Source: an uncultured Rhizobium sp.
GTDB lineage: Bacteria; Bacteroidota; Bacteroidia; NS11-12g; UBA955
Length of the DNA: 64,000 nucleotides
Assembly (NCBI GenBank): GCA_964415065.1
Contig: CAYPYX010000010.1
Coordinates: 864 to 64,863 of the forward strand
Direction of reading: 5' to 3'
Part shown: positions 20,697-39,158 of the stretch, piece by piece
Position numbering within the stretch: position 1 is the stretch's first letter
How the letters are laid out: the number at the start of each line of letters is the position of its first letter
Made by a program: the position numbers and the translations under genes
The notes under the pieces: model-generated
What the model was told of the DNA's origin: nothing
Seen by the model: the letters and a program-made list of their open reading frames with translations, nothing else
The model's database searches: none

Positions 20697-21662
20697 TTAT
20701 AAATATCCCATATTGATCAAATACTGAGCAATATCGGTTTCATCTCTACCAATGGTGGAGTTGAGGGAGTGCATTCGATTGTCTTTGAACGTAAGAATTT
20801 GATAGGAATGAGAGGTGGCTCCTTCAGCTGTAGCCGTACCTACAGTAATTCCAGTTAACAATGAAACGGTATAAGTAGTAACAATAGTTCCATTCTGCGC
20901 CACCGTGCTTTTGGTGATGTTTCCAACGCTTTTGAAGTCCTGTTGTATGTTGGATCCAATTACTTGCACCATGGCGTTTCTATTTCTCTGAACTAGAGCA
21001 TAGTTCGGATTGTTGAATCCGCCTCCATTGTTCATTCCGCCATTGTTTTGCCCTGGGTAACCACCAGATCCGGCTGAATTTCCCATTCCACCAGCAATAA
21101 CAGTAACGCCGGAATGATTTATTTGTGCTTGAGGATGATTGTTAACAATAATAGCCGTCATGAAATTGGGAACAGGATGCATGGCCACAAATTTGTCGCT
21201 AGCATTTTTGTCTAAATATCCATCCACAAAAAGACCGTTTTTTACAATATTTTTTTCGAGGGATGTTCCTATGCCCACCGGAAGCATTCCGCGTTTACCG
21301 GAAGCCGCAAAATAGAATTCGTAGTAGTTTAAATTTTGTGGGTTAGGAGCTTCTTGACTGGAAATGTAGCGTATCCAAACGGCGTCGGTACCATCGAGGT
21401 TTTTTAGAGTACCTTTTATCAAACTGCCTAAGAATTTACTTTCTTCAATGAATATACAAACGGGCTTACCAATGTAAAAAAGGGTGTCGAGACTAACAAC
21501 GGCTTTTTCTTTAGCAATGGATTTTTGAACAGCAATTTCGTGCTTGATTAGTTCCTTTTCAGAGTGTTGAGCTATTAGTGCGTTGCTCATACATCCCCCG
21601 AAAATAAGGAAAAGCAAATGCCAATTTAATGGATAGCGATTCATTTCCCGAAGATACTTCAA
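20697..21662 (-). CDS. Hypothetical secreted protein with a Gly/Asn-rich linker
   Basis: Signal-like N-terminus and the low-complexity stretch GGMGNSAGSGGYPGQNNGGMNNGGGFNNPN. No family recognised. Confidence 0.65.
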   Translation of the reverse strand: MKYLREMNRYPLNWHLLFLIFGGCMSNALIAQHSEKELIKHEIAVQKSIAKEKAVVSLDTLFYIGKPVCIFIEESKFLGSLIKGTLKNLDGTDAVWIRYISSQEAPNPQNLNYYEFYFAASGKRGMLPVGIGTSLEKNIVKNGLFVDGYLDKNASDKFVAMHPVPNFMTAIIVNNHPQAQINHSGVTVIAGGMGNSAGSGGYPGQNNGGMNNGGGFNNPNYALVQRNRNAMVQVIGSNIQQDFKSVGNITKSTVAQNGTIVTTYTVSLLTGITVGTATAEGATSHSYQILTFKDNRMHSLNSTIGRDETDIAQYLINMGYL

Positions 21663-23065: not shown

Positions 23066-23221
23066 TGTTTTATGATTTAATTTATTTTGGTGCAAAAATA
23101 CAAAAACCTCCTGTCAATATGTGTGACTTTTGTGCCAAATTCGTTGGAATAACATAAAACAAACGACGAACGATTAACAGCTACTTAGTTGCCGGAGTTC
23201 ACAGCAGATGAATTGCAGGAA

Positions 23222-23938
23222 TCAAAAGTTAGGGTCAGTCATCATAAGTCCTTCTACGTACTTGGAAGATTTGGATGTTTGCAGAGGGATCAAGTCGTCG
23301 ATAATAGGTGAATTAGAAGGAGATTTCAATTCAATGATAGCGTATTCTTGATTTTGATGTTTTAACTGAGTTTGGCAATTATAGAAACTTAAATCTGTAT
23401 CGATAGTTACTCTAACTGACTCAGAGACATCCATGAAATATCTTCGGAGATATCGGTTAATGAGAGAGGGTTGATGCTGAACAACTTCCAGAAATAAAGT
23501 GTTGGATTCGTTGATAAGCTTTTGCTCAAATTGTTGAAATAAACCTTGTACTTCACCTAAGTTATTCCAATGAAAGTTTCCCAGTTTTTGTGAAAACTTT
23601 TGATTTACGTCGTCGATTTTGTCTTTGTATTCAGCGGTTACATTGATGTCTCCAAATGCTTGGCCGTACCAGCGAAAACGAAGTTTAGTTCGTTCGCTAA
23701 ATCCCTCCACATTGTCGTTTAGATGTTCCATGTCTAATTTGTCGCAATACAAATTATTGATCCATCTGGGATGATAAATGGGAGAGCACCCATGAGCTAA
23801 GAGAAGCGTTTCTATACGGTCAATTTCTTGTAAGGGTACTGTGAATTTACGTTCAAAACGATGTTCGGTTTTGAACGCCTTTTGTTCAAATGGATTTAAC
23901 CATGAACGTAATTTGGACAGAGAGAACGAAATTGCCAT
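23222..23938 (-). CDS. VTC-domain (CYTH/TTM-like polyphosphate polymerase domain) protein
   Basis: FERKFTVP..., TKLRFRWYG, YAIIELKSP and SKSSKYVEGL follow the alternating basic/acidic beta-strand pattern of the VTC/CYTH tunnel fold. Starts 3 nt after the upstream stop. Confidence 0.75.
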   Translation of the reverse strand: MAISFSLSKLRSWLNPFEQKAFKTEHRFERKFTVPLQEIDRIETLLLAHGCSPIYHPRWINNLYCDKLDMEHLNDNVEGFSERTKLRFRWYGQAFGDINVTAEYKDKIDDVNQKFSQKLGNFHWNNLGEVQGLFQQFEQKLINESNTLFLEVVQHQPSLINRYLRRYFMDVSESVRVTIDTDLSFYNCQTQLKHQNQEYAIIELKSPSNSPIIDDLIPLQTSKSSKYVEGLMMTDPNF

Positions 23939-23941
23939 GGT

Positions 23942-26248
23942 TTATCCTTTTTTTGTTGCCCTACCGAATTGCTTTCCGTATAACATAGATTCAACATCTT
24001 TGACCCACTTGATTTTTTTGCCTCGATGTCGGATTTTGGATTTTTTCTGAATAAGGTAATTGACGGAGTTAATATCAAAATCAGCGGTGAAATGAGCTTG
24101 ACCGTATTCTGGTTTCTTTTGAAACACTGCAATATTTAAATCGTTGTTTTCTAGTGTATTTTGATATAGGTTCAAATCCGATTGGTCTTTGCTGACAAAA
24201 GCAATTGCTGAATTTCGAATGGTATTTTTCAGTGCACGAAAGGCACTTCGTTCACCACAGGAAATGGCCTTATCATGGATGTTGGTGAATTCATTGTGAT
24301 GAATGTCCATATCGCTACCGGAGCCATCAACTCCGTCGTTGCCTATTTCTTCGAACCGATTATTGCGGACAACACCATTCGAAAAATCTGAGTCAAAGGC
24401 ATCGCTTAACACATCATGAAAATAGGAATTTTCAATTATAAAGTTTTTGCAGTCAAAAATGTTGAGTATATCATCTCCCAAGCGATTGTTAGAAAACTCA
24501 CAATAGTTGATACGAACAATTTTGCTACGATGAATGGTCAGACCTGCAGGCGTGTTGTGAATACCGTTCGATAAACTGGAAAATCCCTCAAATTGGGTAT
24601 GAGTAAGATTGCAAATTTCTGGAGATTGGAAAAATAGCGATGCGCGGGCTTCATCATTTACACTAAATTTAATTGGAGAACCAGCTGTGCCCATCGATTC
24701 CAAATTTCCCCAAACGTACAATACGGAGTTTTTACCTGTAAACCGGACCTGAGTTCCAGGTTGAATTTTTAACGTTGTGTTTTGGGGGATGTTTACAACG
24801 CCATTGATGATTTTATTTCCGCTCCAGATGATGGTGTTAGGTGTAGGGTTAGGAGTTTCATTTAAAGCGAATGAAAATTTTTGAATCGCTGTATTTGAGG
24901 CTGTATTTGGCGCATTGAATAACTCACAACGATGTGATAATTGAGATTTGACTTCATTGAATTCACTCAATTGATTTATCGACATTCCTGTAAATGCGGT
25001 TTTAAATTGTCCGTTTTCTATTTTTTCATTGAGAGATTTGCTGACTATCAATACATATTTATCCAGTAAATCAAATGTATTTTTATCGTGCTTTATGAGC
25101 CATTCAAAATAATTAGAAACAAAATTTGGCTGGCTATGTGAAATACTGTCTCTAAAAAATTGAATATGGTATTTGTAATGTTCAAATCGCTTTTGACGAG
25201 TAAAGTTTCGAGAATCTATAGTGGCAGACAATCGATTATCAGGACCTACTTCACGCAATAACGGTTCAAATGTGTGATTTACTGGATTGTAATACCAATG
25301 TAAGTTAATGTCCACCAAATGATGCCAAGATTTCATAACCACACCAATCGCGAATACCCCTAAGAATTTAGTTTTATCAATTTTTGGGAAGAGTTCTTCG
25401 TGGTCTTTGTTGAATAGTCGAGAAATATACTTCCGGATATTTTCAGTTTTTACAGAATCGTCGAGCTCAACATTAAATTCCAGGTCGATATTCTTTTCTT
25501 CCAAACCCGGTAAATGTTTAAGGGGGCCAGCAAAACCTTTTTCGAAAATGACTGATTCTCTGCGTTGATTACGTTCTATTAAATATTTACCTAAATCATC
25601 CTCGCGCAATAAATACATGGGTTTTTGTTTGCGAAATTGAACAATAACTGGAGTATAACGAATTTGAATGCCCTGGAAAAGCTCGTGGTATAATTCATTC
25701 GCTAGAGGATCAACAATGTAATTTCGAGTACCTGGAACTAGTAGGTTAATGGCTTTTTCTCCGAAAAGTCGATTGTCGCCATTTAGTTTCAATTTCATAG
25801 AAAAGTAGTCGAACCCCGAATGATGGTCGCTCCACATACCCGTCATGGAAATTTTGGATTTCATCCATTTTGGATTTTCCGCATTTACATATTTAACCCG
25901 ACAACTGTACTTGTCTTTTTTCTCTGTCCACGGAGATCCGTCTAAATTATGATAATTTCTAAACTGTCGATTCCATTCTGCTGTCATTTCTGAAAAACGA
26001 TTGGGTGGCATGTCGATTTTCAGAGTATCTGGAACCGGTTGAGAGGTCACATTGGAATTATTTGCGAAATAATCTTTCAATAGCCAACCTTTATGGATTA
26101 AATCGTGGTCAAATCCTTTTTGTATAAGTTGAGTAATGTGCAGGTTGTAACGACTCACTGATAATACCTCAAGCAATAAAAATCCCCCGAGAATCAATAT
26201 GATGATCAATCTGTTGGACGACTTTTGAATGTTTTTGCGGAAATTCAT
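23942..26248 (-). CDS. Membrane-anchored CotH-like protein fused to right-handed beta-helix repeats
   Basis: N-terminal TM LIIILILGGFLLLEVL. The central region (NLHWYYNPVNHTFEPLLREV) resembles CotH. The C-terminal third has NNRFEEIGNDGVDGSGSDMDIHHNEFTNIHDKAIS beta-helix repeats. The CotH call leans partly on the known CotH/VTC/DUF4956 gene context. Confidence 0.6.
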   Translation of the reverse strand: MNFRKNIQKSSNRLIIILILGGFLLLEVLSVSRYNLHITQLIQKGFDHDLIHKGWLLKDYFANNSNVTSQPVPDTLKIDMPPNRFSEMTAEWNRQFRNYHNLDGSPWTEKKDKYSCRVKYVNAENPKWMKSKISMTGMWSDHHSGFDYFSMKLKLNGDNRLFGEKAINLLVPGTRNYIVDPLANELYHELFQGIQIRYTPVIVQFRKQKPMYLLREDDLGKYLIERNQRRESVIFEKGFAGPLKHLPGLEEKNIDLEFNVELDDSVKTENIRKYISRLFNKDHEELFPKIDKTKFLGVFAIGVVMKSWHHLVDINLHWYYNPVNHTFEPLLREVGPDNRLSATIDSRNFTRQKRFEHYKYHIQFFRDSISHSQPNFVSNYFEWLIKHDKNTFDLLDKYVLIVSKSLNEKIENGQFKTAFTGMSINQLSEFNEVKSQLSHRCELFNAPNTASNTAIQKFSFALNETPNPTPNTIIWSGNKIINGVVNIPQNTTLKIQPGTQVRFTGKNSVLYVWGNLESMGTAGSPIKFSVNDEARASLFFQSPEICNLTHTQFEGFSSLSNGIHNTPAGLTIHRSKIVRINYCEFSNNRLGDDILNIFDCKNFIIENSYFHDVLSDAFDSDFSNGVVRNNRFEEIGNDGVDGSGSDMDIHHNEFTNIHDKAISCGERSAFRALKNTIRNSAIAFVSKDQSDLNLYQNTLENNDLNIAVFQKKPEYGQAHFTADFDINSVNYLIQKKSKIRHRGKKIKWVKDVESMLYGKQFGRATKKG

Positions 26249-26365
26249 CGTGTTTTAATGAGGAGATGAGTGGTACTTTACAGGTGGATAAAAAGTTAGT
26301 GGTGTAGGTTTACACACTCCAATCTAGTTGTATGGGAGGCTAATTTAACCAACCGAAAAACTAGG

Positions 26366-27040
26366 TTATGCGTTGGATGTAGAGATTTTAACTAGTGGGT
26401 TTTGTACGTTGAAGTCGGTCAAAATCTGATTTACTTGAGAAACAGTTTGTAAACTAGCGTCTTGTAATTTGAATAACAAACGGTAATTGGAGTGATTTGA
26501 ATTTTCGTAGTTAGAAAGCGCAGTTACTGCAGGGATTTCTGAGATTTTTGACATGCAAGATTCTGCTTTTGTTGATTCTGACTCCGTGAACGTAATTAAT
26601 AAAAAGTCGGAATGCAATCGCTCCGATTTTACCGCACCTTTAAATCTAAAGATGGACACCAATGTAAACACAGCAACACATAAAGTCGAAATGATGAATT
26701 GTTCAGCGGCCAAAGAAATAGCTATAGCGGTTAGTCCTAAAAGGAAAATGATTTGCTCTGGTTCTTTAATCGCTGTACGAAAGCGAATGATTGATAATGC
26801 ACCAACCAATCCTAAACTTAGTGCTAATGATGATTTTATGGTAGTAATGATCAGATATATGGATAAAGAAAAGAACAGAAAGTTAGATGCGAACAGTGTT
26901 CTGTTGGACGTAACCAAAGCGTAATTTTTGAATAAAAGTTGAAAAACTACGGTGTAAATAATAAGTAACACAAGTCCCAGGCTGAAATTGGCATAATTAA
27001 CGGAACTGAGTAATTGAGTATTTTGAAATAACTGATCCAT
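26366..27040 (-). CDS. DUF4956-like membrane protein
   Basis: Four or five TM helices with the hallmark LSIIRFRTAIKEPEQIIF, then a soluble ~85-aa tail. Confidence 0.75.
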   Translation of the reverse strand: MDQLFQNTQLLSSVNYANFSLGLVLLIIYTVVFQLLFKNYALVTSNRTLFASNFLFFSLSIYLIITTIKSSLALSLGLVGALSIIRFRTAIKEPEQIIFLLGLTAIAISLAAEQFIISTLCVAVFTLVSIFRFKGAVKSERLHSDFLLITFTESESTKAESCMSKISEIPAVTALSNYENSNHSNYRLLFKLQDASLQTVSQVNQILTDFNVQNPLVKISTSNA

Positions 27041-27094
27041 GACGTTTTAAGTCGTCAAAAATAATTAAATCATCATTATAAATTAATATTATGA

Positions 27095-27979
27095 TTAAAT
27101 TCCTGTGTTTTTGATTTTTTGAAAATACAATTTTTTAATGATAGCATCGGCCAATCCGACTTTTGGAACCAGTATATCATTGCAATTGGACCACTTCATT
27201 ACACTTAGGTAAATGTGCATGGCAGGAACAATTACATTGGCTCTATCTTCTCGAATATTGAATTGGTGTATGCGTTCTTCAATGGGTAAGGGAGCCATAT
27301 TTTGGTGTAATTGTTTAATGAAATTGCGACTCAAAGGCTTTCCTTCTTTTTGTTTTGAAATGGAGAATATTTTATTTATGTTTCCCCCGCTTCCCACCAA
27401 TTGTAAATTGGCAGATTGTGCTACGTGAGTTTTAACAAATGATTTCATTGCTTGCCAAGCATCATCGTAATTTAATTGATTCAAAATACGAATAGTGCCT
27501 ACGTTGAATGATTGTTTAGCCACTATGGCTGTGTCGTTAAAAAGGGTTAATTCCGTACTTCCTCCACCAACATCGATAAATAATTGCTGACCGGTATTAA
27601 TGGTATGATTTTCCAGCAGGATTCCTGCTTCTTCGTCTCCAGAAATAATATCGATTTCGATCTTCGTTTTCTTGCGTATGGTTTTTTTGATTTTGGAGCC
27701 ATTTTTGGCATCCCTCATTGCTGAAGTAGCGCAGGCTCGGTAATGTTCCACTTTGTAAATTTCCATCAGATTTTTAAAGACCTGCATGGTTTGGATGAAC
27801 ATTTTAATCTTTTCGGGGGATATGAAACCGGTTTCGAAGACATCAAAACCCAATTGTAATGGAATTCTGACCAGATTGAGTTTGGTGAAATCGGTATCGG
27901 TTCCAGTGCCGTATGGATCTGCCTTCATGATGAGTAGGCGTGCGGCATTGGAACCAATATCGATACTTGCGAGAATCAC
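27095..27979 (-). CDS. ppx: Ppx/GppA-family exopolyphosphatase (short form)
   Basis: N-terminal ASIDIGSNAARLLI, and DVGGGSTEL and GSGGN phosphate-binding loops of the ASKHA fold. Confidence 0.87.
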   Translation of the reverse strand: MILASIDIGSNAARLLIMKADPYGTGTDTDFTKLNLVRIPLQLGFDVFETGFISPEKIKMFIQTMQVFKNLMEIYKVEHYRACATSAMRDAKNGSKIKKTIRKKTKIEIDIISGDEEAGILLENHTINTGQQLFIDVGGGSTELTLFNDTAIVAKQSFNVGTIRILNQLNYDDAWQAMKSFVKTHVAQSANLQLVGSGGNINKIFSISKQKEGKPLSRNFIKQLHQNMAPLPIEERIHQFNIREDRANVIVPAMHIYLSVMKWSNCNDILVPKVGLADAIIKKLYFQKIKNTGI

Positions 27980-28113: not shown

Positions 28114-28803
28114 TTAAAAAACTTCAGAGATAGAAGACGAAAACTGAAATGCATCTTGTATCATGTAGTAGTTTTCTGGATCGATGCAAGCTGAATATGC
28201 ATATTTTGCAAATTCAACACGGCTACTTTCAAAACTAAACACCAACAGCATTTCTCTGATTTGCCAAGAACTTAAAGAGTTGCTATTTGCAATGTTTTTG
28301 GCCAAAATTAATCGGTCAGAATCGAATGCAGCTGATTTTAATATATTTAAGGATCCATAAAAATGATTGTAATCCATTGCTACAGGTCCACAATCTCTAT
28401 GACCACCTTGAAAGTTACAAGATATTGCAGGACAATTTCGAATGGCCGCCGGTTTGCAAGCTCTGGGTGAACGAGGTTGATTTACATGGTTACAATGATT
28501 GGGAGAACACGAATTGCCGTGGTTGCAAACTCTAGGTTGTGGATTGCATATTCCACAAGCCGCAACTCGGTTTCTTCCATGCTTGGAACACGAAGGATAA
28601 ACGGCAGCGTTTTGCTGATGGTTGCAATTCGATGAATGATTGCATGATGATTGTTGATGTCCATCAGAATGATGTGAATGATTTCCTGCCTGAATTTTAA
28701 CTTGTACTTTAACGTTGGAAGAGGACGAATGGTGGTGGCGTTGAGCTGATGCAATAGAAAAAGACATCAAAGAAATCATGCCGAGTAGAATTGAGTTTTT
28801 CAT
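28114..28803 (-). CDS. Secreted DUF4476-domain protein with a His/Cys/Asn-rich N-terminal half
   Basis: Signal peptide. The region from HHHSSSSN through many CNH/CxxC-like repeats comes first. The C-terminus FDSDRLILAKNI...SWQIREMLLVFSFESSRVEFAKYAY is DUF4476-like. Confidence 0.75.
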   Translation of the reverse strand: MKNSILLGMISLMSFSIASAQRHHHSSSSNVKVQVKIQAGNHSHHSDGHQQSSCNHSSNCNHQQNAAVYPSCSKHGRNRVAACGICNPQPRVCNHGNSCSPNHCNHVNQPRSPRACKPAAIRNCPAISCNFQGGHRDCGPVAMDYNHFYGSLNILKSAAFDSDRLILAKNIANSNSLSSWQIREMLLVFSFESSRVEFAKYAYSACIDPENYYMIQDAFQFSSSISEVF

Positions 28804-29404: not shown

Positions 29405-31063
29405 ATGGTCTCAGTATTTTGCTCAAAATACTATTTGATTCAAATGAAAAACGAAAAACAAATTAAACATATATCGCTCCCCGCGGAAGGTTTCGCTGGG
29501 TTGAAGCAAAATTTTAGTTCCGATTTTATGTCGGGATTTTTTATATTCTTGTTGGCTTTGCCACTGAGTTTAGGAATTTCAAAAGCAAGTGAGTTTCCTG
29601 CAATTATGGGACTGATTACAGCCATGATTGGTGGAGTAGTGGTGTCATGGATTGCTGGATCGCGATTAACAATTAAGGGTCCAGCTGCAGGGTTAATTGT
29701 AATTGTAGCGGGTGCAGTAGCCGAATTCGGTAAAGGAGATGCCTTGTTGGGTTGGAAATTGGCATTGGGCGCCATTTTTGTTGCAAGCATCATTCAAATA
29801 TTATTCGGTTTAATTCGCTTAGGATCGTTGGTGGATTTTTTCCCACTGAGTGCAATTCACGGAATGTTGGCTGCCATCGGAATTATTATTATCAGTAAAC
29901 AGGCGCATCAAATATTTGGAGTTACCCCCAAAGACAGTTTAGGGCATGTTTTGTCTGAACCCATAGATTTAATTCGGGCCATCCCTAAAAGTATGATTCT
30001 CGCAGATCACAATTCCCTGATAATTGGTGTAGTAAGCTTGCTTATTGTGTTTTTATGGCCATTGGTGAAGCATCCCATACTTAAAAAAGTGCCAAGTCCA
30101 ATTTTGGTTTTAGGGGTTGCTATTCCACTATCCAAAGGTATACATTTGGATCCTAAGTACTTGATTCATTTCGGAGATGATTTAATTCATACATTGAAAA
30201 TTAACATTCAATTTGGAGGAATGACAGAGACTGGAACCTTTATTAAATATGTACTCATGTTCGCACTGGTGGGAAGTTTGGAAAGTTTATTAACGGTAAA
30301 AGCAGTAGATGCGATGGATCCATTTCGCAGAAAGTCCAATGCTAATAAAGATTTGATAGCCGTTGGTATCGGTAATATGATTAGTTCAATTTTGGGTGGT
30401 TTGCCTATGATTTCTGAAGTAGCTCGAAGCAGTGCAAACGTTAATAATGGTGCAAAAACGCGATTTGCTAACTTTTGGCATGGGGCACTGATGTTATTGT
30501 TTTTGCTATTTGATCTTGAATTCTCTGATTTGATACCTCAAGGAGCATTGGCTGCATTGCTTATTGGAGTAGGCGTGAAATTAGCTAGTCCGAAAGAGTT
30601 TGGTCGCATGGCAAAAATAGGTCCTGAGCAGTTGGCTGTATTTATCACTACCATTGTTGTAACTCTCTTGACGGATTTGCTCTTAGGTATTTTTGCAGGA
30701 ATTGTGATAAAAATTATTCTTCAAACCATTTTAGGTGCACCGTTGAAATCCGCATTTAAATTGGATTATGAACAAAGGGGTAATGTATTATATGTAAAAA
30801 AAGCAGCTGTATTTTCCAATTGGTTGAAATTAAATAAAATAATTGCAAGTTTTAATCAAAAGGATATCTATAAGTTGGATTTTTCACAATGCAGAATAAT
30901 TGATCATACGGTACAGGAAAATCTACACCATTTGATTCGAGAGTTTGAAAATTCGGGTGGATTGTTGGAAGTAACTGGAGTGGATGATATGAAATACACT
31001 TCCAAGTCTAAACACCATATGTCTACACGGTATCGTTCTCGTAGAACCGTTGTTTCACAGTAA
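29405..31063 (+). CDS. SulP-family inorganic anion transporter with a C-terminal STAS domain (BicA-like candidate)
   Basis: SulP core (FLLALPLSLGISKASEFPAIMGLITAMIGGVV..., ESLLTVKAVD) and a STAS-like tail. The likely ATG is at 29444 (MKNEKQ). Confidence 0.92.
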   Translation: MVSVFCSKYYLIQMKNEKQIKHISLPAEGFAGLKQNFSSDFMSGFFIFLLALPLSLGISKASEFPAIMGLITAMIGGVVVSWIAGSRLTIKGPAAGLIVIVAGAVAEFGKGDALLGWKLALGAIFVASIIQILFGLIRLGSLVDFFPLSAIHGMLAAIGIIIISKQAHQIFGVTPKDSLGHVLSEPIDLIRAIPKSMILADHNSLIIGVVSLLIVFLWPLVKHPILKKVPSPILVLGVAIPLSKGIHLDPKYLIHFGDDLIHTLKINIQFGGMTETGTFIKYVLMFALVGSLESLLTVKAVDAMDPFRRKSNANKDLIAVGIGNMISSILGGLPMISEVARSSANVNNGAKTRFANFWHGALMLLFLLFDLEFSDLIPQGALAALLIGVGVKLASPKEFGRMAKIGPEQLAVFITTIVVTLLTDLLLGIFAGIVIKIILQTILGAPLKSAFKLDYEQRGNVLYVKKAAVFSNWLKLNKIIASFNQKDIYKLDFSQCRIIDHTVQENLHHLIREFENSGGLLEVTGVDDMKYTSKSKHHMSTRYRSRRTVVSQ

Positions 31064-31078
31064 AATCGTTCGGGATTT

Positions 31079-33670
31079 ATGAAACAAGAAAATGAAATTG
31101 AGAACAAATACTTGTCTCAAATCAGACATTTATTGCCCAGTCAGGCACCATTGAAAGATTTTGTGCATCATAATACACTTCATCACTTTCAGGAATTACC
31201 GTTTTTAAACGCTATCGAGACGTATTTTCAAGAGCTAGGTATCAAAAATATTTACGATTTAAAAACGTATTTAGACTGGTTTAATCAAGGTGTAATTTCT
31301 AGAGATGCTTTGACTTTTGTCCTTTCTAGAGATAAAAACAAGAAACACTACACTGTAGACCAGTGGGTAGATTATACTCGAAATCAAATTGAAATTTACG
31401 AGAATCAGTTGCAATGGCACCCTAAAGTGAAAACCTTGAAGGGTTTGTGGAAGCGTAAATTGAACTTGGATGTTGATGCGGTTGTGTATCCAGTTTTATT
31501 TCGTTGGATTTCCAATTATATGGATCAAGGAATTTCAGAATTGGAAAACGAACTGTGGAGCGAGGGCTTGTGGGCGGATTTCAAAACTATTAATAAACAG
31601 AGTTTCGTATCTGTATTAAAGCATCCCCATTCTAAATGGATACTGGAGGAAAGCCAGAGTCCAGAATCAGCTTTGAATACACTTTTGAATGAGTTAGTGG
31701 GAGATGAGTCGCTGGGATTTGAATATTTGAAAGAGCAACAACTCATGCATCCAGGTTGGTCAGGGTTGGTTTCAGTGGTAGAACAGAATCCTCGACATTT
31801 GATTTTGCCTCGAAAAGTTCGATTGGTTGAGTTTATAGCTATTGAATTATTATTGGAATTTGACTTTTTGGTGTCTCACGTTAAAAAGGGAACTTCGTTC
31901 AAATTGTGTGATTTATTGGATACCGAATTTGTTCAACTTTCAACAGGTCCAAAGCCGGATTTTTCTACAGAAAATATTTGGCAATTAGCTTTCGAATGGA
32001 CCTACTATTCAACCGTAATTAATCAAATTCAAACCAGCACTTTAAGTAGTTCTCAGAAAGAGAATTCCGGTTCATTTGCAACATATCAAGCGCTTTTTTG
32101 CATCGATGATCGCGAGGGAAGTTTGCGAAGTCATCTAGAGGAAATATCCGATAATTCAGTTCAGACTTTTGGAATACCGGGATTTTTTGGGATTGAATTT
32201 TATTACCAAGGATTGGGAATGGTACACGCTTCCAAAAGTTGTCCTGCGCCAGTTACTCCTCACGTATTGATTAAGGAGCAACATCCAAATTCACATCGAT
32301 TGAACAACCAAAATCGGTTGAAACAGAATGATTCGAGCCAGGTACCAATAAACGAGCAAAATCAGAATGCTTCAAGCACAAGGAATACGTCCCCCGAAAA
32401 AATAAAAAATGACCCAATTCTTCATCGAAATACGCATAAATCGATTCACGGAATAATGGGTTCCATAGGGCTCGGATTTGCAGCAGGATATAGATTGGTA
32501 AAGCAAATGGTTCAACCACAAATGAATCATTATGTTGCGAGTTCAGCCTCTTTTATGAATCCCGAGTCAAAATTGACGTTGTTGCACATGGGCGTTTTTG
32601 AAAATGGACTGCAAGTCGGATTTACACTTGAGGAATTGCTGGTTAGGGCGGAGAATATGCTTCGAAGTATAGATTTGACACAAAATTTTGCTTCTTTGGT
32701 GTATTTGATTGGTCACGGAGCCAGTTCAATTAACAATCCTCATTATGCGGCGTACGATTGCGGTGCTTGTAGTGGTAGACCAGGTTCAGTTAATGCCAGG
32801 CTGATGGCGATGGTGTTGAATTTGCCTGAAATTAGATTGGGTTTAAAGCAAAAAGGTATAGAGATACCTGAAACTACTCGTTTCATCGGTGCTCTACACG
32901 ATACCACACGCGATGAAATTCAGTTCTACGATTTACATCGAATGCCATCGGATCGGTTGTATGAACACGGAAAATTTCAAGATTGGGTTGAAAATGCACT
33001 GCTGTATAATTCCGCTGAAAGGTCTCTTGCCTTTACTAATATGAACAGTGTTTTTCATAAATCAGCACTGAAAAATAAGCAGGGTGTTTCCAAAGAGACA
33101 TTGAAACAAATCCATCAAGAGGTTTTAAAACGAAGTCTTCGATTGTTTGAAACTCGTCCAGAATACAATCATGCAACGAATGCCTTGTGTGTTATTGGAA
33201 ATCGCAGTTTAACGCAACATGTAGATTTAGATCGCAGGGCTTTTCTGCAGTCGTATAATCCATTTTCGGATCAAGATGGTTCTATTCTACATTCCATCAT
33301 GAAGGCCGCTGTTCCCGTTTGTGGCGGAATTAATTTGGAGTATTACTTTTCAAAAGTAAGTCCCGATCAAATGGGAGCAGGTAGTAAGCTTCCGCACAAC
33401 GTAAATGGACTTTTAGGCGTATCAAATGGTGTTGAAGGCGATTTGAGAACGGGTTTGCCAGCTCAAATGGTGGAAATTCATGATGCCATACGATTGTTAA
33501 TGGTTATTCAACAATCACCAGAAATACTGGAACAAATTTTAAATCAAGATTCTGTTTTGAAAGAGTGGTTTGAAAATGAATGGATGCATTTACTCGTAAT
33601 TCATCCAATCTCGGGAGCAAGTTATTATTATTCTAACGGATCTTTTGTTAACTATTTAATAGAAAAATAG
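31079..33670 (+). CDS. dabA: DabA (DUF2309) inorganic-carbon transporter subunit
   Basis: N-terminal LKDFVHHNTLHHF. Putative Zn ligands are FCIDDRE (Cys341 at 32099..32101 and Asp343) and GHGASSINNPHYAAYDCGACSG (His546 at 32714 and Cys561 at 32759). Motif GLLGVSNGVEGDLRTGLP is present. Its stop is 1 nt from the DabB start. Confidence 0.92.
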   Translation: MKQENEIENKYLSQIRHLLPSQAPLKDFVHHNTLHHFQELPFLNAIETYFQELGIKNIYDLKTYLDWFNQGVISRDALTFVLSRDKNKKHYTVDQWVDYTRNQIEIYENQLQWHPKVKTLKGLWKRKLNLDVDAVVYPVLFRWISNYMDQGISELENELWSEGLWADFKTINKQSFVSVLKHPHSKWILEESQSPESALNTLLNELVGDESLGFEYLKEQQLMHPGWSGLVSVVEQNPRHLILPRKVRLVEFIAIELLLEFDFLVSHVKKGTSFKLCDLLDTEFVQLSTGPKPDFSTENIWQLAFEWTYYSTVINQIQTSTLSSSQKENSGSFATYQALFCIDDREGSLRSHLEEISDNSVQTFGIPGFFGIEFYYQGLGMVHASKSCPAPVTPHVLIKEQHPNSHRLNNQNRLKQNDSSQVPINEQNQNASSTRNTSPEKIKNDPILHRNTHKSIHGIMGSIGLGFAAGYRLVKQMVQPQMNHYVASSASFMNPESKLTLLHMGVFENGLQVGFTLEELLVRAENMLRSIDLTQNFASLVYLIGHGASSINNPHYAAYDCGACSGRPGSVNARLMAMVLNLPEIRLGLKQKGIEIPETTRFIGALHDTTRDEIQFYDLHRMPSDRLYEHGKFQDWVENALLYNSAERSLAFTNMNSVFHKSALKNKQGVSKETLKQIHQEVLKRSLRLFETRPEYNHATNALCVIGNRSLTQHVDLDRRAFLQSYNPFSDQDGSILHSIMKAAVPVCGGINLEYYFSKVSPDQMGAGSKLPHNVNGLLGVSNGVEGDLRTGLPAQMVEIHDAIRLLMVIQQSPEILEQILNQDSVLKEWFENEWMHLLVIHPISGASYYYSNGSFVNYLIEK

Positions 33671-33671
33671 A

Positions 33672-35543
33672 ATGGGAATACTAAATAATTTTATTTTAAT
33701 TCCCATTTTGGGATGGGTGATAAGTTTGTTGTGGCAGAGAAAAAGTGAAAAGTTAATTTCCAATACAGCATTGCTAACATTGTTGTTGCAGTTGTTGATT
33801 TTTCCTGTGTTGATTTATACCTGGTGGTTAACTTCAGAAAAATGGATAAGTCTCTTCGATTTTACGCTATACAATTCAGGCGATTATTCATTTAACTTCA
33901 GTTTGTATTTCGATAAAATATCGGCAGTTTTCTCTTTAGTGGGAATACTTTTGAGCTTAATAGTGGTATTCTATACTTCCAAGTATTTACATGGAGAACC
34001 GGGGTATAAACGCTTTTTTAACACCATTCAGCTGTTTTTTGTGGGATATAATTTCGTCATCTTTGGAGGAAATTACGAAACGGTTTTTATAGGTTGGGAA
34101 ATTCTTGGAATTAGTTCATTTTTATTGATTGCTTTTTATCGTGAACGTTATCTTCCGGTTAAAAACGCCGTAAAAGTATTCTTTATTTATCGGATTGGGG
34201 ATGTAGGGTTTATTTTAGCCATGTGGCTTAGTCATCATGCTTGGCATAGCAACATCAATTTTGCCCATTTGAATCATGTAGATTTTGTGCGAGATCATTT
34301 ACAGGAAAGCGCAGGGGTTGGAGTTGCAGTTGGCTTGTTATTCTTTTTGGTAGCGATGGGTAAAAGTGCGTTGTTTCCATTTTCGAGTTGGCTTCCACGA
34401 GCAATGGAAGGGCCAACGCCGTCTTCGGCAATTTTCTACGGTTCTTTGTCTGTGCATTTAGGAGCTTTTTTGATGCTACGTACTTTGCCTATTGTTTTGC
34501 AAGAACCAATGGTTCAAGCTTTTATGATTATGGTTGGAGCAATTACTTCGTTAGTTGGACATTATACAGCAAAGTATCAGTCCACCATTAAATCGCAAGT
34601 TGCTTATGGTTCTTTATCCCAAATTGGTTTGATTTTTATTGAGATTGCATTGGGTTGGGTGGATTTGGCGTTGCTCCATTTTGTTGGAAATGCTTTGTTG
34701 AGAACCTACCAATTGTTAGTGAGCCCTTCATCAGTTGTCTATTTAATTCGAAAACAACATCGTTCCAGTCTTCCCGAAAAGCAGCACTCTCAATTTCTGA
34801 ATCGGTGGAATTACACAATGTATGTTTTGAGTCTTAAAGAATTCTATATGGAGCAAATTCAATATGGATTACTCTGGTATCCATTTAAACAATGCGGTCG
34901 ATGGTTGAATAAAGTCGATAAACGATATTTTGTGAGTGTAGGTGTAGTGTTGATGGGGTTGTTTAGTGTGGATTTCTTTGGACTTACTGAGTATTCTCCT
35001 GATTGGTGGTTGTCAATAAATCAACACTTATCTCTGGTTTTAGCGATATTTGCATTGTCTTTGGTGCTATTTGCATTTGGCAACTATAAAAATTCTCTTT
35101 TTTCTTGGATATCAATTTCGTTGAGCCATTTGTTCATTGCATTGAGCGTACTCGTAAAGTCTAAAGGATTTTTAGGGGATGTGGAAATTTACTTAAGTGG
35201 AATTTTTATAGCCTCAATTATGGGAATAATCGTATTGAGATACATTCAAAAACAGCATAATATTCGGTTAAATCACCACTGGGGATTATTTCAATTTTTT
35301 CCCAAGTTATCGGTTTTCTTCTTGGTGATTTCACTGATGATGACTGGTTTTCCAATAACTCCAACTTTCCTAGGGGAAGATCTAATGTTTACCCATTTGC
35401 AAACGAATGAGCCTTTGTTGGCTTCAATCATTGCACTCACATTAATAATCGACGGATTGGTAATTGTTCGTATATATTCTAGGTTGTTTTTTGTAATTAC
35501 CCGTGATGAAAACAACCGAAATAAATTTTATAAAAATGCTTAG
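33672..35543 (+). CDS. dabB: DabB, NuoL/MnhA-like proton-conducting membrane subunit
   Basis: Proton_antipo_M features WEILGISSFLLIAFY, SALFPFSSWLPRAMEGPTPSSAIFYGSLSVHLGAFL and VAYGSLSQIGLIF. Tightly coupled to dabA. Confidence 0.9.
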   Translation: MGILNNFILIPILGWVISLLWQRKSEKLISNTALLTLLLQLLIFPVLIYTWWLTSEKWISLFDFTLYNSGDYSFNFSLYFDKISAVFSLVGILLSLIVVFYTSKYLHGEPGYKRFFNTIQLFFVGYNFVIFGGNYETVFIGWEILGISSFLLIAFYRERYLPVKNAVKVFFIYRIGDVGFILAMWLSHHAWHSNINFAHLNHVDFVRDHLQESAGVGVAVGLLFFLVAMGKSALFPFSSWLPRAMEGPTPSSAIFYGSLSVHLGAFLMLRTLPIVLQEPMVQAFMIMVGAITSLVGHYTAKYQSTIKSQVAYGSLSQIGLIFIEIALGWVDLALLHFVGNALLRTYQLLVSPSSVVYLIRKQHRSSLPEKQHSQFLNRWNYTMYVLSLKEFYMEQIQYGLLWYPFKQCGRWLNKVDKRYFVSVGVVLMGLFSVDFFGLTEYSPDWWLSINQHLSLVLAIFALSLVLFAFGNYKNSLFSWISISLSHLFIALSVLVKSKGFLGDVEIYLSGIFIASIMGIIVLRYIQKQHNIRLNHHWGLFQFFPKLSVFFLVISLMMTGFPITPTFLGEDLMFTHLQTNEPLLASIIALTLIIDGLVIVRIYSRLFFVITRDENNRNKFYKNA

Positions 35544-37011
35544 TAAAAGAACCATATTCCATTTAATCCTGATTGCCTTTTTAGGGGTCTTTGCCGAAAA
35601 TTTGAATGCAGAAACTCGAGTTTCCAACATATCTCCTGCTAATTCAAAGTCACCCTATCCAACGTTGAATTTTACATTTTTGAATCAAACTTGGTTGCGC
35701 TTTTCTCAAAATAATGAAGGAACACTTCGTCTGGGAGAATCGGCCTTGAACACTTTAGACATTGGGTTGAGAAGAACACGTTTCCAGTTGTTCGGAAATG
35801 TACATCCTCGGGTTTTTTATTATTTGCAAGTGGGACAAAATAATTTCAATTCCATGTATAACATTGGAAGTAATCGTAAAAATGCTGTTTTTATTCATGA
35901 CGCAATTACAGAGTACCAAGTTACCCAAACCAATGCACTGAAAATAGGTGGTGGATTGGGAATTGCCAACGGTTTGTCGCGCTTTTCTCAGCCGTCTATA
36001 GGTACGATTGCAACCATGGATGTCCCCGTTTTTGCCCAAGCTACCGTAGATCAAATCGATCAATTTTCCCGAAAATTGAGTGTGTACGCTCGTGGTCAAT
36101 TGGGTAAATTTGATTACCGTTTTGTTCTCAGCGATCCTTTTCCTATTAGCAGTAATGGTTCAACCTTACCTTCAATTTCTAAAAATGCTCAGTTCAGTCC
36201 CCTAAAACACCAAAAACAACTTCAAACCTACTTGATGTATCAGTTTTTTGATCAGGAGGGACATACAACGCCCTATATGACTGGTAATTATTTGGGAACG
36301 AAGAAAGTGTGGAACATCGCTTTTGGGGCGATTTATCAACCCGATGCAATGTATCGCTTGGGGAACTTTGGAGACACAATTTTTGAGGATATGAAGCTAT
36401 TTTGTGTGGAATCATTTATGGACATACCCATGAATAATCAGTCAGCATTACATGCATATTTGGGGTATTTTAATTTAAATTATGGTTCGAATTATTTGAG
36501 AATGAATGGGATTATGAACCCTGCAAATTCGTCGAACTTAGTTGGGTTGACGAAGGATGTGGGGCCTCAATATGGAAATAGTTTGCCTATGTTTGGTACG
36601 GGACAATCCATCTATTCGGAAGTACATTATTTACTTCCCCAAAGAAGCAAAAGGATAGAAGTTTCGAATGTGGTTTCTTCTTCAAAAGATGTGCCTGCCA
36701 CAGCGGGAAATAAAGATGTATCTTCTTCAACAAATGCAGGAGCTGCGGCAAATTCAGCAACTGCTTCACATGCAATTGTCCCAACGCGATATGGGGTTTA
36801 TGCATCCGTTAATTGGTCAAAATACGATCGGTTGAATTCCGTTTCAACTCTTGAAAGTCATGTAGGATTAAATTGTTTTATACAAGGCCACCAAGGAAAG
36901 TTAAGTTTGGATGTAGCCAATCGTCCACAAGTTTTGGTTTTCAATAATTCAATTGATCGAGGTTCCAATTTATGGCAAGCCGTTCTGCAATACCAGATTT
37001 TTTTGAATTAA
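35503..37011 (+). CDS. Putative outer-membrane porin
   Basis: The likely start is ATG 35536 (MLSKRTIFHLILIAFLGVFAENLNA signal peptide). Alternating beta-strand composition throughout and a C-terminal ...VLQYQIFLN. The porin role is inferred, not matched to a family. Confidence 0.65.
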   Translation: MMKTTEINFIKMLSKRTIFHLILIAFLGVFAENLNAETRVSNISPANSKSPYPTLNFTFLNQTWLRFSQNNEGTLRLGESALNTLDIGLRRTRFQLFGNVHPRVFYYLQVGQNNFNSMYNIGSNRKNAVFIHDAITEYQVTQTNALKIGGGLGIANGLSRFSQPSIGTIATMDVPVFAQATVDQIDQFSRKLSVYARGQLGKFDYRFVLSDPFPISSNGSTLPSISKNAQFSPLKHQKQLQTYLMYQFFDQEGHTTPYMTGNYLGTKKVWNIAFGAIYQPDAMYRLGNFGDTIFEDMKLFCVESFMDIPMNNQSALHAYLGYFNLNYGSNYLRMNGIMNPANSSNLVGLTKDVGPQYGNSLPMFGTGQSIYSEVHYLLPQRSKRIEVSNVVSSSKDVPATAGNKDVSSSTNAGAAANSATASHAIVPTRYGVYASVNWSKYDRLNSVSTLESHVGLNCFIQGHQGKLSLDVANRPQVLVFNNSIDRGSNLWQAVLQYQIFLN

Positions 37012-37085: not shown

Positions 37086-39158
37086 TTAGTGATATTCCTT
37101 GTTTTGAAGGTATTTGTATATTTCTAATTGTGATCTAAACTCTACGGATTCTATAGATTCCGGAGTGAAGTATTCATTATTTTGAATGTTATTTAGAACA
37201 CGTGCCTTAACATTTTCTTTAAGTTGAATCTCCATTATGTCGATTAGCTCTTGTGAAAATGTTTTTGAAACGATTGGACAAGTCACCTCAACACGATGAT
37301 CGAGATTTCGAACCATCCAATCAGCCGAAGATATGTAAACGATGGGATCGTTATTGTTATTGAAAATAATTACTCGGGCATGTTCTAAATATTCGTCAAC
37401 AATGCTGATGCCTCGAATGTCTTTCTTAAATGCTTTTTGATGCGTCGTGGCCGTGCAAATTCCGCGAACAACCATATCGACTTGCACTCCACTTCGAGCC
37501 GCTTTATAGAGAGATTCAATTAGAGTTGGGTCAACCAATGAATTTAATTTTACTAAAATTCTTCGTTGGCTCTTTCTGCGTTTTATTTCTTTTTCGATTT
37601 GTTGAATGAAATGATTTCGGGTATTAAAAGGGCTTGTAATTAGTGTTTTACACGATTTTATTTTATCGAGGGATGGGTGTTCTGATTCTAAGCAATCGAA
37701 GATCTTATTAATATCCTGAATTATGGACGATTTGGAGGTCATCAACATGTGGTCGCCGTACAATTGTGCAGTACCTTCATGAAAATTACCGGTAGAAATA
37801 AATGCATATTGTAAGGTTTTATTGAATTCACGTTTTTTAATCACGCATAATTTGGCATGAACTTTCATGTTGGGTACTCCAACGTAAACTTTAATACCTT
37901 CTTCTTCTAATATACTCTTCCATTTTAAATTGGCTTCTTCATCAAAACGTGCTTTTAATTCAATAACAACTGATACCGTTTTGCCATTGCGAACGGCATT
38001 AAGAAGTGCATTAATTACTTTGGAATTCTTAGCCAGACGGTATACGGTAATTCGAATGCTTTGAACAAACGGATCAATGGCAGCTTCCCTCAATAAATCG
38101 ATCACAGAATCAAAACTGTGATAAGGGAAATGCAGCATAACGTCCCGATTTTGAATCACATCCATAATTCTGCAGGGTTGTTTTAATAATGGATGCACAA
38201 AAGGTTTAGGACGGTATTTTATATCGTGAAATACCTCTTTGGGGAAATCCATAAACGCTTTGAAATTATGAATTCTTCCTCCCGCAATGAGGTCAGCTTT
38301 TTTATCGAGATTCAGTCTGCGCGTAAGGTAATCCAATAATTGGGGGTCGATTCGTTTGTCGTATACGAAACGCGTGGCTTTCCCTTTACTACGTTTCTTT
38401 AAATTCTTTTCTAATTCGGTAATAATGTTTGAATTGAAGCCGTTGTCTAAGTCCATTTCAGCATCTCGAGTCAATTTAATTACGTGACTTTTAAAGCGAT
38501 CAAATCCAAACGGAGCAAACAAGAATTTTAAATTATAGCGAATAACATCCTCCAACATAATGATATGTGTTTCATTTTTGGGGGATGGAAGTATGATGAA
38601 TCGAGGAATATGTTGCTCTGGAACTTCAATGAGTGCATATCGTTGCAACATAGGATTGTTGGTGTTGCCAAGTAAACATGCTAAATAAATTGAACGGTCG
38701 CGCAACATTGGAGCATGTGGCATACTTTCGATCATTAAGGGAACAATTTGGCTACGAACTCGTTCTTCAAAGTAATTCTCAACCCATGTTTTTTGATCTT
38801 TGCTTAATTCTCGTTCATTTTTTAGGTAAATTTTATATTTAGTACCTAATTCTCGGATGATTTGTGCAAACGTTTTGTCGAAAGCACTTTGAAGTTTAAT
38901 GACTTCTTCGTGAATTTGGCTTAAAATGCGTTCTGGATTTTCTTCTAAATGAATTTTAGCAGTTTGTTTGTTGAGCTTAACCATTTTGTTCAGAGTTCCA
39001 ACACGAACGCGGAAAAACTCATCTAAGTTATTGGAGAATATCCCTAAAAAACGCAATCTGTTATACAAGTGAACTTCATTATCCTGCGCCTCTTGCATTA
39101 CTCTCTGGTTAAACGATAACCAACTTATGTCCCGAATGATTTTTTTCACTGCATGCAA
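37086..39158 (-). CDS. ppk: Polyphosphate kinase 1
   Basis: RDISWLSFNQRVMQEA, NRLRFLGIFSNNLDEFFRVRV and two PLD-like HxK motifs (VHAKLCVI; EHARVIIF). 690 aa. Confidence 0.96.
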   Translation of the reverse strand: MHAVKKIIRDISWLSFNQRVMQEAQDNEVHLYNRLRFLGIFSNNLDEFFRVRVGTLNKMVKLNKQTAKIHLEENPERILSQIHEEVIKLQSAFDKTFAQIIRELGTKYKIYLKNERELSKDQKTWVENYFEERVRSQIVPLMIESMPHAPMLRDRSIYLACLLGNTNNPMLQRYALIEVPEQHIPRFIILPSPKNETHIIMLEDVIRYNLKFLFAPFGFDRFKSHVIKLTRDAEMDLDNGFNSNIITELEKNLKKRSKGKATRFVYDKRIDPQLLDYLTRRLNLDKKADLIAGGRIHNFKAFMDFPKEVFHDIKYRPKPFVHPLLKQPCRIMDVIQNRDVMLHFPYHSFDSVIDLLREAAIDPFVQSIRITVYRLAKNSKVINALLNAVRNGKTVSVVIELKARFDEEANLKWKSILEEEGIKVYVGVPNMKVHAKLCVIKKREFNKTLQYAFISTGNFHEGTAQLYGDHMLMTSKSSIIQDINKIFDCLESEHPSLDKIKSCKTLITSPFNTRNHFIQQIEKEIKRRKSQRRILVKLNSLVDPTLIESLYKAARSGVQVDMVVRGICTATTHQKAFKKDIRGISIVDEYLEHARVIIFNNNNDPIVYISSADWMVRNLDHRVEVTCPIVSKTFSQELIDIMEIQLKENVKARVLNNIQNNEYFTPESIESVEFRSQLEIYKYLQNKEYH

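Follow-up and report, generated by a model that had tools for sequence, protein, structure and literature searches.

A 64,000-nucleotide stretch of DNA from an uncultured Bacteroidota bacterium (contig CAYPYX010000010.1 of assembly GCA_964415065.1, positions 864 to 64,863; referred to throughout as the window) carries three adjacent minus-strand genes that encode a DUF4956 membrane protein, a 768-residue protein in which a CotH-like domain is fused to a beta-helix, and a VTC-domain protein. These three genes (the trio) are linked across distant genomes and are the likely functional unit, and as the best explanation of the whole we tentatively propose that the trio reaches across the inner membrane and has an envelope or cell-surface polysaccharide as its target. 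The public sequencing runs that contain the window sequence are DNA metagenomes of freshwater, wastewater, aquatic, soil and groundwater origin, and the host is an uncultured freshwater or wastewater member of the Bacteroidota.

Linkage of the trio

The DUF4956 gene (26366-27040; 224 aa; Pfam PF16316, 1.4e-9), the gene for the 768-residue protein (23942-26248; assigned from an AlphaFold2 (AF2) model, Foldseek and intermediate sequences) and the VTC gene (23222-23938; 238 aa; Pfam PF09359, 7.5e-25), whose product belongs to the triphosphate tunnel metalloenzyme (TTM tunnel) type, follow a ppx gene on the minus strand. The list of open reading frames (ORFs) gives intergenic gaps of 54, 117 and 3 nt in turn from ppx through to VTC, in agreement with the four genes and spacings described in an earlier note on this DNA, and the searches with hidden Markov models (HMMs) give direct Pfam matches for its Ppx-GppA, DUF4956 and VTC assignments.

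The DUF4956, CotH-like/beta-helix and VTC genes are adjacent in about 28 fetched loci of relatives (27-99% identity), and indeed in every sufficiently long locus recovered by tblastn, by a genome scan or from homologue contigs; their reading frames often overlap. There are two gene orders, and in one distant locus (L006) the order is CotH-like, VTC, DUF4956. An independent sample of 80 metagenome loci was collected by a DUF4956 motif and scored with HMMs built for this analysis; the DUF4956 alignment was used for this pattern scan because that of VTC is too variable. Among the 38 of these loci with at least 3.5 kb downstream, to which all counts refer, a VTC gene is present in 36, a CotH-like gene in 31 and both in 30. 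The claim of the earlier note that the trio recurs without a demonstrated function is well founded, in that co-occurrence is far above chance and the literature searched assigns it no biochemical role. A DUF4956 search returns more than 7,400 homologues, and the trio is abundant in Bacteroidota and in marine metagenomes; it is widespread, and clustering at 50% identity leaves about 2,665 representatives of the CotH-like domain alone.

One metagenome locus (L065, 7219-16413) holds the module twice within a short distance, once in the order VTC, DUF4956, CotH-like and once inverted, which suggests either a duplication or two specificities within one glycan region.

The VTC protein

The VTC protein matches PF09359 at 88.3 bits (cutoff 23; E 7.5e-25) over profile positions 2-231 of 235, and by Pfam it consists of this domain alone, lacking both SPX and a fused membrane channel. 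A hydropathy scan finds no transmembrane (TM) helix and the protein is predicted to be cytoplasmic. Its residues were mapped by a profile search of the PDB with 14 orthologues (27-76% identity) and alignment to Vtc2, Vtc3 and Vtc4 (3g3q), for which the chain-numbering offset of 185 was checked by counting along the chain. Residues K31, R87, R89, K105 and Y163 of the window protein correspond to Vtc4 K200, R264, R266, K281 and Y359, and R165, R176, S225 and K226 to R361, R373, S457 and K458. K31, R87, R89, K105, Y163, R165, S225 and K226 are invariant in the 14 orthologues, among which the invariant set includes both basic and acidic residues. Synthesis of polyphosphate (polyP) by Vtc4 requires K200, R264, R266, K281, R361, K458, S457 and Y359, and K458 is the sole catalytic-residue difference in the inactive Vtc2 and Vtc3 (10.1101/2023.01.27.525886). 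The earlier note had named loss of the tunnel residues as the observation that would count against its reading of this protein; the eight aligned triphosphate-binding residues of Vtc4, K458 among them, are all kept. A bacterial VTC protein retaining the aligned Vtc4 triphosphate-binding residues, including K458, appears to be new relative to the literature searched. No match to the VTC protein was found by tblastn against plasmids.

The eukaryotic VTC complex (3g3q, 7ytj, 8i6v) thus shares with the bacterial protein the same Pfam tunnel domain and the aligned triphosphate-binding residues with the K458 equivalent, together with an obligate membrane partner, the bacterial VTC gene accompanying DUF4956 in 36 of the 38 loci. 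It differs in that the bacterial protein is a free-standing 238 aa polypeptide lacking SPX and fused membrane domains, has Glu (E29) where Vtc4 has Thr, and is partnered by DUF4956, with five TM helices and an ACT-like domain and no fold match to the VTC channel. The membrane part of Vtc1 and Vtc4 consists of three TM helices of the DUF202 type.

The CotH-like domain of the 768-residue protein

The 768-residue protein has no match in Pfam (E up to 10) or NCBIfam and none in the PDB by phmmer, and a PDB search with a profile of 29 of its relatives returned nothing relevant. PF08757 (CotH) matches none of these 29, and when the family profile of the N-terminal domain is compared by hhalign with 5jd9 as a single sequence, no significant alignment results. 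The 68 database homologues are all annotated as 'hypothetical protein', some with the Pfam Beta_helix domain. The AF2 model built on the 29 homologues (pLDDT 83.9) has an N-terminal helix (residues 12-53), a mixed alpha/beta domain (about 70-450) and then the beta-helix, and the top two Foldseek matches to it in the PDB are Bacillus cereus CotH structures, 5jda and 5jd9 (E 3e-9; target-normalised TM-score 0.50-0.56). A profile of the N-terminal domain finds 2,665 proteins among 1.84 billion representatives; PF08757 matches 18 of 35 sampled distant relatives (best 1.6e-13), and a profile of the 35 matches CotH 5jd9 at 2e-17. The model and the intermediate sequences together indicate that the N-terminal domain (residues about 70-450; 24899-26041, minus strand) is a divergent branch of the CotH superfamily. 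The CotH identity advanced in the earlier note therefore stands on predicted fold and transitive homology and fails as a direct HMM match, which is why the label CotH-like depends on intermediate sequences and structure.

A signal-anchor helix (residues 14-32; 26153-26209, minus strand) is found by the hydropathy scan within the long N-terminal helix of the AF2 model, and the positively charged N-terminus, MNFRKNIQKSSNR, precedes this single TM segment. The sidedness of all trio proteins was assigned by the positive-inside rule, with no signal sequences; since the N-terminus is basic, the protein is predicted to be N-in with its bulk in the periplasm. The single N-terminal membrane helix agrees with what had been claimed before.

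The active site was mapped by MAFFT alignment with 5jd9 and by counting residues in the 89 CotH-like ORFs of the fetched loci, with column counts out of 83. Residues G137, H142, S150, R175, E216, E225, H309, N315, N321-P322, E328-P329 and E333 are conserved. The column of the catalytic Asp, D224 in B. cereus, is occupied by H309, with His in 81 ORFs and a variable residue following it; the catalytic-loop Asn is kept (N229 corresponding to N315; Asn in 70), as is the metal-binding acid (D247 corresponding to E333; Glu in 49 and Asp in 32). D224 lies five residues before N229, the D-x4-N spacing of protein kinases, and we take it to be the equivalent of B. subtilis D228. CotH D228Q is catalytically inactive (PMC7821199). 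Conservation of H309, N315, Glu or Asp at 333 and many other polar residues makes an enzyme more likely than a decayed pseudo-enzyme, although not necessarily a conventional kinase. The label 'protein kinase' should not be assumed for this protein, as there is no CotH HMM match and the catalytic Asp has given way to a near-universal His.

Bacillus CotH kinase (5jd9/5jda), a relative of the Fam20 secretory-pathway kinases, remains the best structural match, shares the catalytic-loop Asn and the metal-binding acid, and like the CotH-like domain is placed outside the cytoplasm. It differs in having the catalytic Asp where the window protein has His, and in lacking the beta-helix fusion and membrane anchor; moreover the organism here has no spore coat, and substrates like CotB or CotG are not evident. 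Kinases of the CotH-like kind can phosphorylate glycans, as Fam20B and POMK do.

Residues about 321-480 (24809-25288) are only 25-52% identical to the closest database relative (P0002, locus L008), whereas outside this segment each 40-residue block is 95-100% identical, as are the flanking genes at 99-100%. The segment, in the helical region that follows the CotH-like core, is a cassette that has been replaced or is hypervariable; in it P0002, P0004 and P0006 are mutually similar and the window allele is the outlier.

The beta-helix domain

The C-terminal part of the protein (residues about 470-760; 23969-24841, minus strand) is a right-handed beta-helix in the AF2 model, with strands spanning residues 471-740. 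PF13229 matches 7 of the 29 relatives, and a conserved Asp/Ser ladder (DAxDSDFS, GNDGVDGSGS, DKAISCGE, SKDQS) runs along the domain. The beta-helix repeats noted before are thus seen again in the model, in the PF13229-positive relatives and in the structural matches, which include PL6 alginate lyase, Vibrio RbmB, AlgE4, AlgG and phage tailspikes (E 1e-3 to 1e-2).

Such lyase and epimerase matches, along with the missing CotH HMM match and catalytic Asp, would be expected if the protein were mainly a periplasmic lyase or epimerase with the CotH-like part as a non-catalytic scaffold, and if VTC and DUF4956 were unrelated housekeeping proteins co-inherited with it. We consider this very unlikely: the adjacency of the three genes, with overlapping frames, persists in very divergent loci and in two orders, and in the Gram-positive trio CotH is fused to FN3, not to a beta-helix (PMC12345266), so that the CotH part and not the beta-helix is the constant partner.

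The middle gene of the trio varies in form. It is split into ORFs of 441 and 304 aa in L029 (10675-12884), is replaced in a contig from Psychroserpens (L030, 10672-13952) by a pair of ORFs, 517 and 573 aa long, and in L006 (8001-10505) encodes an 834 aa protein with a different N-terminal domain that can be aligned in the beta-helix part only.

The DUF4956 protein

The DUF4956 protein matches PF16316 at 38.4 bits (cutoff 30.6; E 1.4e-9), as do all 15 of its orthologues (best 5.6e-23). In its AF2 model, made with database homologues (pLDDT 77), five TM helices precede a C-terminal beta-alpha-beta-beta-alpha-beta domain of the ferredoxin/ACT-like type (residues 146-220). The motif KSSLALSLGLVGALSIIRFRTAIKEPEQ, which covers TM3 and the adjoining loop, is almost invariant among orthologues that are otherwise 26-35% identical. 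Basic loops lie on one face (K38/R47, R86/R88/K92 and, after TM5, R131/K133/K137), and by the positive-inside rule the protein is predicted to be N-out and C-in, so that its C-terminal domain and the RFRTAIKEPEQ loop would both face the cytoplasm. The polytopic character given by the earlier note holds, with five TM helices in the AF2 model and agreement from the hydropathy scan, and so does its arrangement by compartment, with VTC free of TM helices, DUF4956 in the membrane and the 768-residue protein predicted to be anchored outside the cytoplasm. Its suggestion that DUF4956 is a channel fares less well, as the matches listed by the fold search show no likeness to the VTC channel and the protein instead looks like a weakly MgtC-like five-TM protein with an ACT-like domain. 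Foldseek matches to the C-terminal domain are weak (Lrp/AsnC RAM, ACT and PII-like; E about 1e-2), and the membrane part has none. The MgtC/SapB family similarly has about five TM helices and then a small ACT-like alpha/beta domain, placed in the cytoplasm by the positive-inside rule; it is set apart by the weakness of the Pfam MgtC (PF02308) matches, which occur in 3 of the 15 orthologues (best E 0.017) and not in the window protein, and by the KSSLALSLGLVGALSIIRFRTAIKEPEQ signature, which is specific to DUF4956.

These features bring in a role in trans-membrane signalling or regulation, in which the 768-residue protein would be an altered polysaccharide sensor, DUF4956 would relay its state, and VTC would make or destroy a phosphate-rich signal, or consume ATP or polyP, and so tune polysaccharide synthesis. 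An ACT/RAM/PII-like domain is a typical ligand-binding fold, the weak MgtC matches and the replaced catalytic Asp of the CotH-like domain point the same way, and Streptococcus intermedius mutants shift in the amount of Pel, for which the authors raise a regulatory role (10.1101/768473, PMC12345266). Set against this, the His/Asn/acid constellation and the invariant polar residues favour catalysis, the triphosphate-binding set of the Vtc4 type is complete with K458 and speaks for processive polymer chemistry, and the trio has no cyclic-nucleotide enzyme or transcription factor as a consistent neighbour. We therefore regard signalling as an unlikely role and retain action on an envelope polysaccharide as our working proposal.

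Glycan genes around the trio and published relatives

Outside the lineage of the window the neighbours of the trio are mostly surface-polysaccharide genes, which argues for glycan modification rather than polyP housekeeping. They encode GT1, GT2, a methyltransferase, Bac_transf and epimerases in L004 and L005, Glyphos_transf, a cytidylyltransferase and a Polysacc_synt (Wzx-type) flippase in L006 and L007, and GT2, a heparinase-like protein and an epimerase in L032. In 7 of 10 further long metagenome loci a gene for glycan or cell-wall functions lies directly beside the trio, these being Polysacc_synt, GT1 (three loci), UDP-glucose dehydrogenase, a Wzt ABC ATPase, a PMT_2 glycosyltransferase and MurF-Alr.

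Related genes have been reported in Gram-positive bacteria, so the trio is not categorically new. In Streptococci, Clostridia and Bifidobacteria, genes for CotH, a 'polyphosphate polymerase' and DUF4956 (with DUF4832) directly adjoin pelDEADAFG as accessory genes (Whitfield et al., 10.1101/768473 = PMC7112168). The NELoc-2 locus of Clostridium perfringens has VTC and CotH genes with membrane genes annotated as 'tubulin/FtsZ' between them (PMC2879425), and the latter we take to be DUF4956 genes. An mBio 2025 report on S. intermedius SIR_1592-1594 states that deletion of the DUF4956 or the CotH gene reduces Pel and aggregation, leaves the mechanism open, describes the streptococcal DUF4956 protein as an MgtC-like TM part plus ACT, and gives the three-gene synteny as not found outside Pel loci (PMC12345266), whereas the present searches find that synteny in abundance among Bacteroidota and marine metagenomes.

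The Gram-positive pel accessory genes resemble the window trio in that the same three families are linked with exopolysaccharide genes nearby, and in the predicted layout, where CotH is secreted, a second protein combines TM and ACT parts, and no export signal is reported for VTC. The differences are that the host here is a Gram-negative member of the Bacteroidota with neither a pel operon nor DUF4832, and that the CotH-like protein lies beyond the reach of the Pfam model, is membrane-anchored, and is fused to a beta-helix rather than to FN3. This Bacteroidota form, with an anchored, beta-helix-fused, Pfam-invisible CotH-like domain bearing an invariant His, appears to be new relative to the literature searched, as does the abundance of the trio in environmental Bacteroidota.

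A proposed mechanism

A plausible route by which the trio could act is through export of polyP. The cytoplasmic VTC protein would be an active Vtc4-type tunnel enzyme that converts ATP to a phosphoanhydride donor, in the simplest case a short polyP chain. It would work with the five-TM DUF4956 protein, whose RFRTAIKEPEQ loop and ACT-like domain are likely docking and regulatory surfaces, and which would pass or present the donor at the periplasmic face. There the 768-residue protein would hold a glycan chain on its beta-helix while the CotH-like domain phosphorylates the glycan or an associated substrate, with H309 as a base or phospho-acceptor. Transfer through a phospho-His intermediate is possible because the Asn and the metal-binding acid are kept while His replaces the catalytic Asp. 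The periplasm is free of ATP, so a phosphoanhydride polymer made in the cytoplasm and a membrane partner would be an attractive means of supplying a donor outside. The fully specified version, in which VTC and DUF4956 deliver polyP to the periplasm and a His-dependent enzyme of CotH fold (poly)phosphorylates a polysaccharide held by the beta-helix using polyP and not ATP, we hold as doubtful. The Ppx protein is left out of this scheme as a housekeeping exopolyphosphatase of an ancestral ppk1-ppx pair, tied to the trio by synteny.

Several observations weigh against the proposal that the trio acts on an envelope polysaccharide, or against parts of this route. In the CotH-like domain the alignment places an invariant His at the position of the catalytic Asp, and the domain may be inactive or have a different chemistry. 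The membrane domain of DUF4956 has no Foldseek match to a transporter or a VTC channel subunit among the matches listed, and the modelled ACT-like domain fits a regulator or adaptor as well as a conduit. The VTC protein has E29 on strand 1, in an 'ExK' motif where Vtc4 has Thr, which recalls the ExExK motif that marks hydrolytic CYTH enzymes; it also has an invariant E203-x-K205, a candidate for the Mn2+-binding E426 of Vtc4, which falls outside the aligned stretch. Its sequence would fit a polymerase or a triphosphatase alike, and cannot tell between them. Four metagenome loci (L073, L087, L104, L109) have VTC and DUF4956 without a CotH-like gene, and since a few loci hold only those two the VTC and DUF4956 pair is the core of the system. 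The neighbours of the trio in the window and its lineage are not glycan genes. In the available text on S. intermedius no phenotype was seen for the VTC mutant (SIR_1593; PMC12345266), and in the literature searched no paper gives the bacterial VTC/DUF4956 system a biochemical function.

Bacteria have two routes to polyP, PPK1 and PPK2, and if the VTC protein is a true polymerase it would be a bacterial polyP synthase unrelated to either, and thus a third route. If its product is passed to a periplasmic enzyme of kinase fold, this would explain how phosphorylation is powered where ATP is absent, and the trio would reveal that capsules, exopolysaccharides and biofilm matrices, streptococcal Pel among them, are modified in a new way. 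An unusual chemistry could be approached directly through the invariant His that stands where kinases have the catalytic Asp.

ppx and ppk1

The ppx gene (27095-27979, minus strand; 294 aa) was identified from the ORF list and a Pfam Ppx-GppA match (2.4e-31; PF02541, 109.7 bits against a cutoff of 27); TIGR03706 scores 196 bits, under its cutoff of 307. The closest solved structure is a putative exopolyphosphatase, 7epq, which aligns over the full length (1.3e-65). The window protein carries the ASKHA phosphate-binding motifs, as DIGSNA and DVGGGSTE, and the hydropathy scan finds no TM helix. Ppx looks like an ordinary short housekeeping exopolyphosphatase of Bacteroidota, similar both to 7epq and to Aquifex PPX/GppA (1t6c/1t6d), with nothing notable that differs. 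The ppk1 gene (polyphosphate kinase 1; 37086-39158, minus strand), which has all four PP_kinase Pfam domains, is 9.1 kb from ppx.

The presence of ppx and ppk1 beside the trio is confined to one Bacteroidota lineage and occurs there within a wider syntenic block. The block in the window consists of a TonB receptor gene, ppk1, opposite-strand SulP-DabA-DabB, DUF4476, ppx, the trio and then ahpC, beyond which lie thioredoxin, DUF6952, one ORF without assignment, YjdM and acs; what is conserved across the lineage is TonB receptor-ppk1-ppx-acs-trio-ahpC-trx. In relatives whose 768-residue protein homologues are 40-48% identical, the order is ppk1-ppx-acs-DUF4956-CotH-like-VTC on one strand, and in most of them ppk1 adjoins ppx or is one gene away, a SulP gene sometimes lying between the two.

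On this linkage rests a reading in which VTC and DUF4956 make or export polyP as an envelope store or shield, Ppx and Ppk1 belong to the same economy, and the 768-residue protein binds or processes polyP. The VTC catalytic residues are kept, ppx is 54 nt upstream of the trio on the same strand, and ppk1-ppx-acs-trio or close variants occur on one strand in relatives 40-90% identical in the 768-residue protein. However, ppx and ppk1 are found within 9 kb in only 1 of the 38 independent loci, and that locus is of the same lineage as the window. Within the lineage one locus (L031) has ppk1-acs-trio without ppx, and four (L001-L003 and L029) have the trio with neither ppx nor ppk1. The block also keeps acs, ahpC, trx and the TonB receptor gene, so that synteny by descent explains the linkage; a candidate promoter lies within the ppx-DUF4956 gap (below); and glycans are suggested both by the beta-helix and by the genes beside the trio in other lineages. 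We judge a polyP store or shield to be a rather improbable role. Because the inherited block equally holds acs and ahpC, proximity to ppx and ppk1 weighs little as functional evidence, and ppx is probably near the trio by inherited gene order and not as part of the module. Of the earlier reading as a whole, the logic of a polyP synthase, a membrane protein and an outside enzyme survives as a hypothesis, whereas the argument from ppx and ppk1 does not, since the same block would argue equally for a peroxiredoxin or an acetyl-CoA synthetase; their proximity in the window is not to be read as evidence of function.

Other features of the locus

The sequence TATTTTTG, found by eye, lies about 20 nt upstream of the DUF4956 start in the ppx-DUF4956 gap (27041-27094, minus strand) and again upstream of ahpC (23096-23221, minus strand). 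It matches the Bacteroidetes -7 promoter consensus TAnnTTTG, and the trio may be transcribed apart from ppx, and ahpC apart from the trio. Scans for sigma-70 promoters, a type unsuited to Bacteroidota, and for terminators gave background levels at the locus.

Two ORFs have no Pfam match, 20697-21662 (minus strand, 321 aa) and 35503-37011 (plus strand, 502 aa). The 321-aa ORF is the x of a conserved string, ahpC-trx-DUF6952-x-YjdM-acs, and the closest relatives, L008 and L009, have corresponding ORFs of 297-327 aa. The 502-aa ORF is the last part of a plus-strand stretch between ppk1 and ppx (29405-37011) that also encodes a SulP-family transporter and an inorganic-carbon pump of the DAB type, DabA and DabB. 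Between ppk1 and ppx there is room for no more than a SulP gene in L010 and three related loci, and the SulP-DabA-DabB stretch therefore looks like an insertion or expansion that has split the two genes.

Directly upstream of ppx is a gene for a DUF4476 protein (28114-28803, minus strand), a position conserved in L008 and L009. The protein has a signal-like start and its N-terminal 140 residues are rich in His, Cys, Asn and Ser (HHHSSSS..., with repeated CNH), a composition that may indicate a metal-binding envelope protein.

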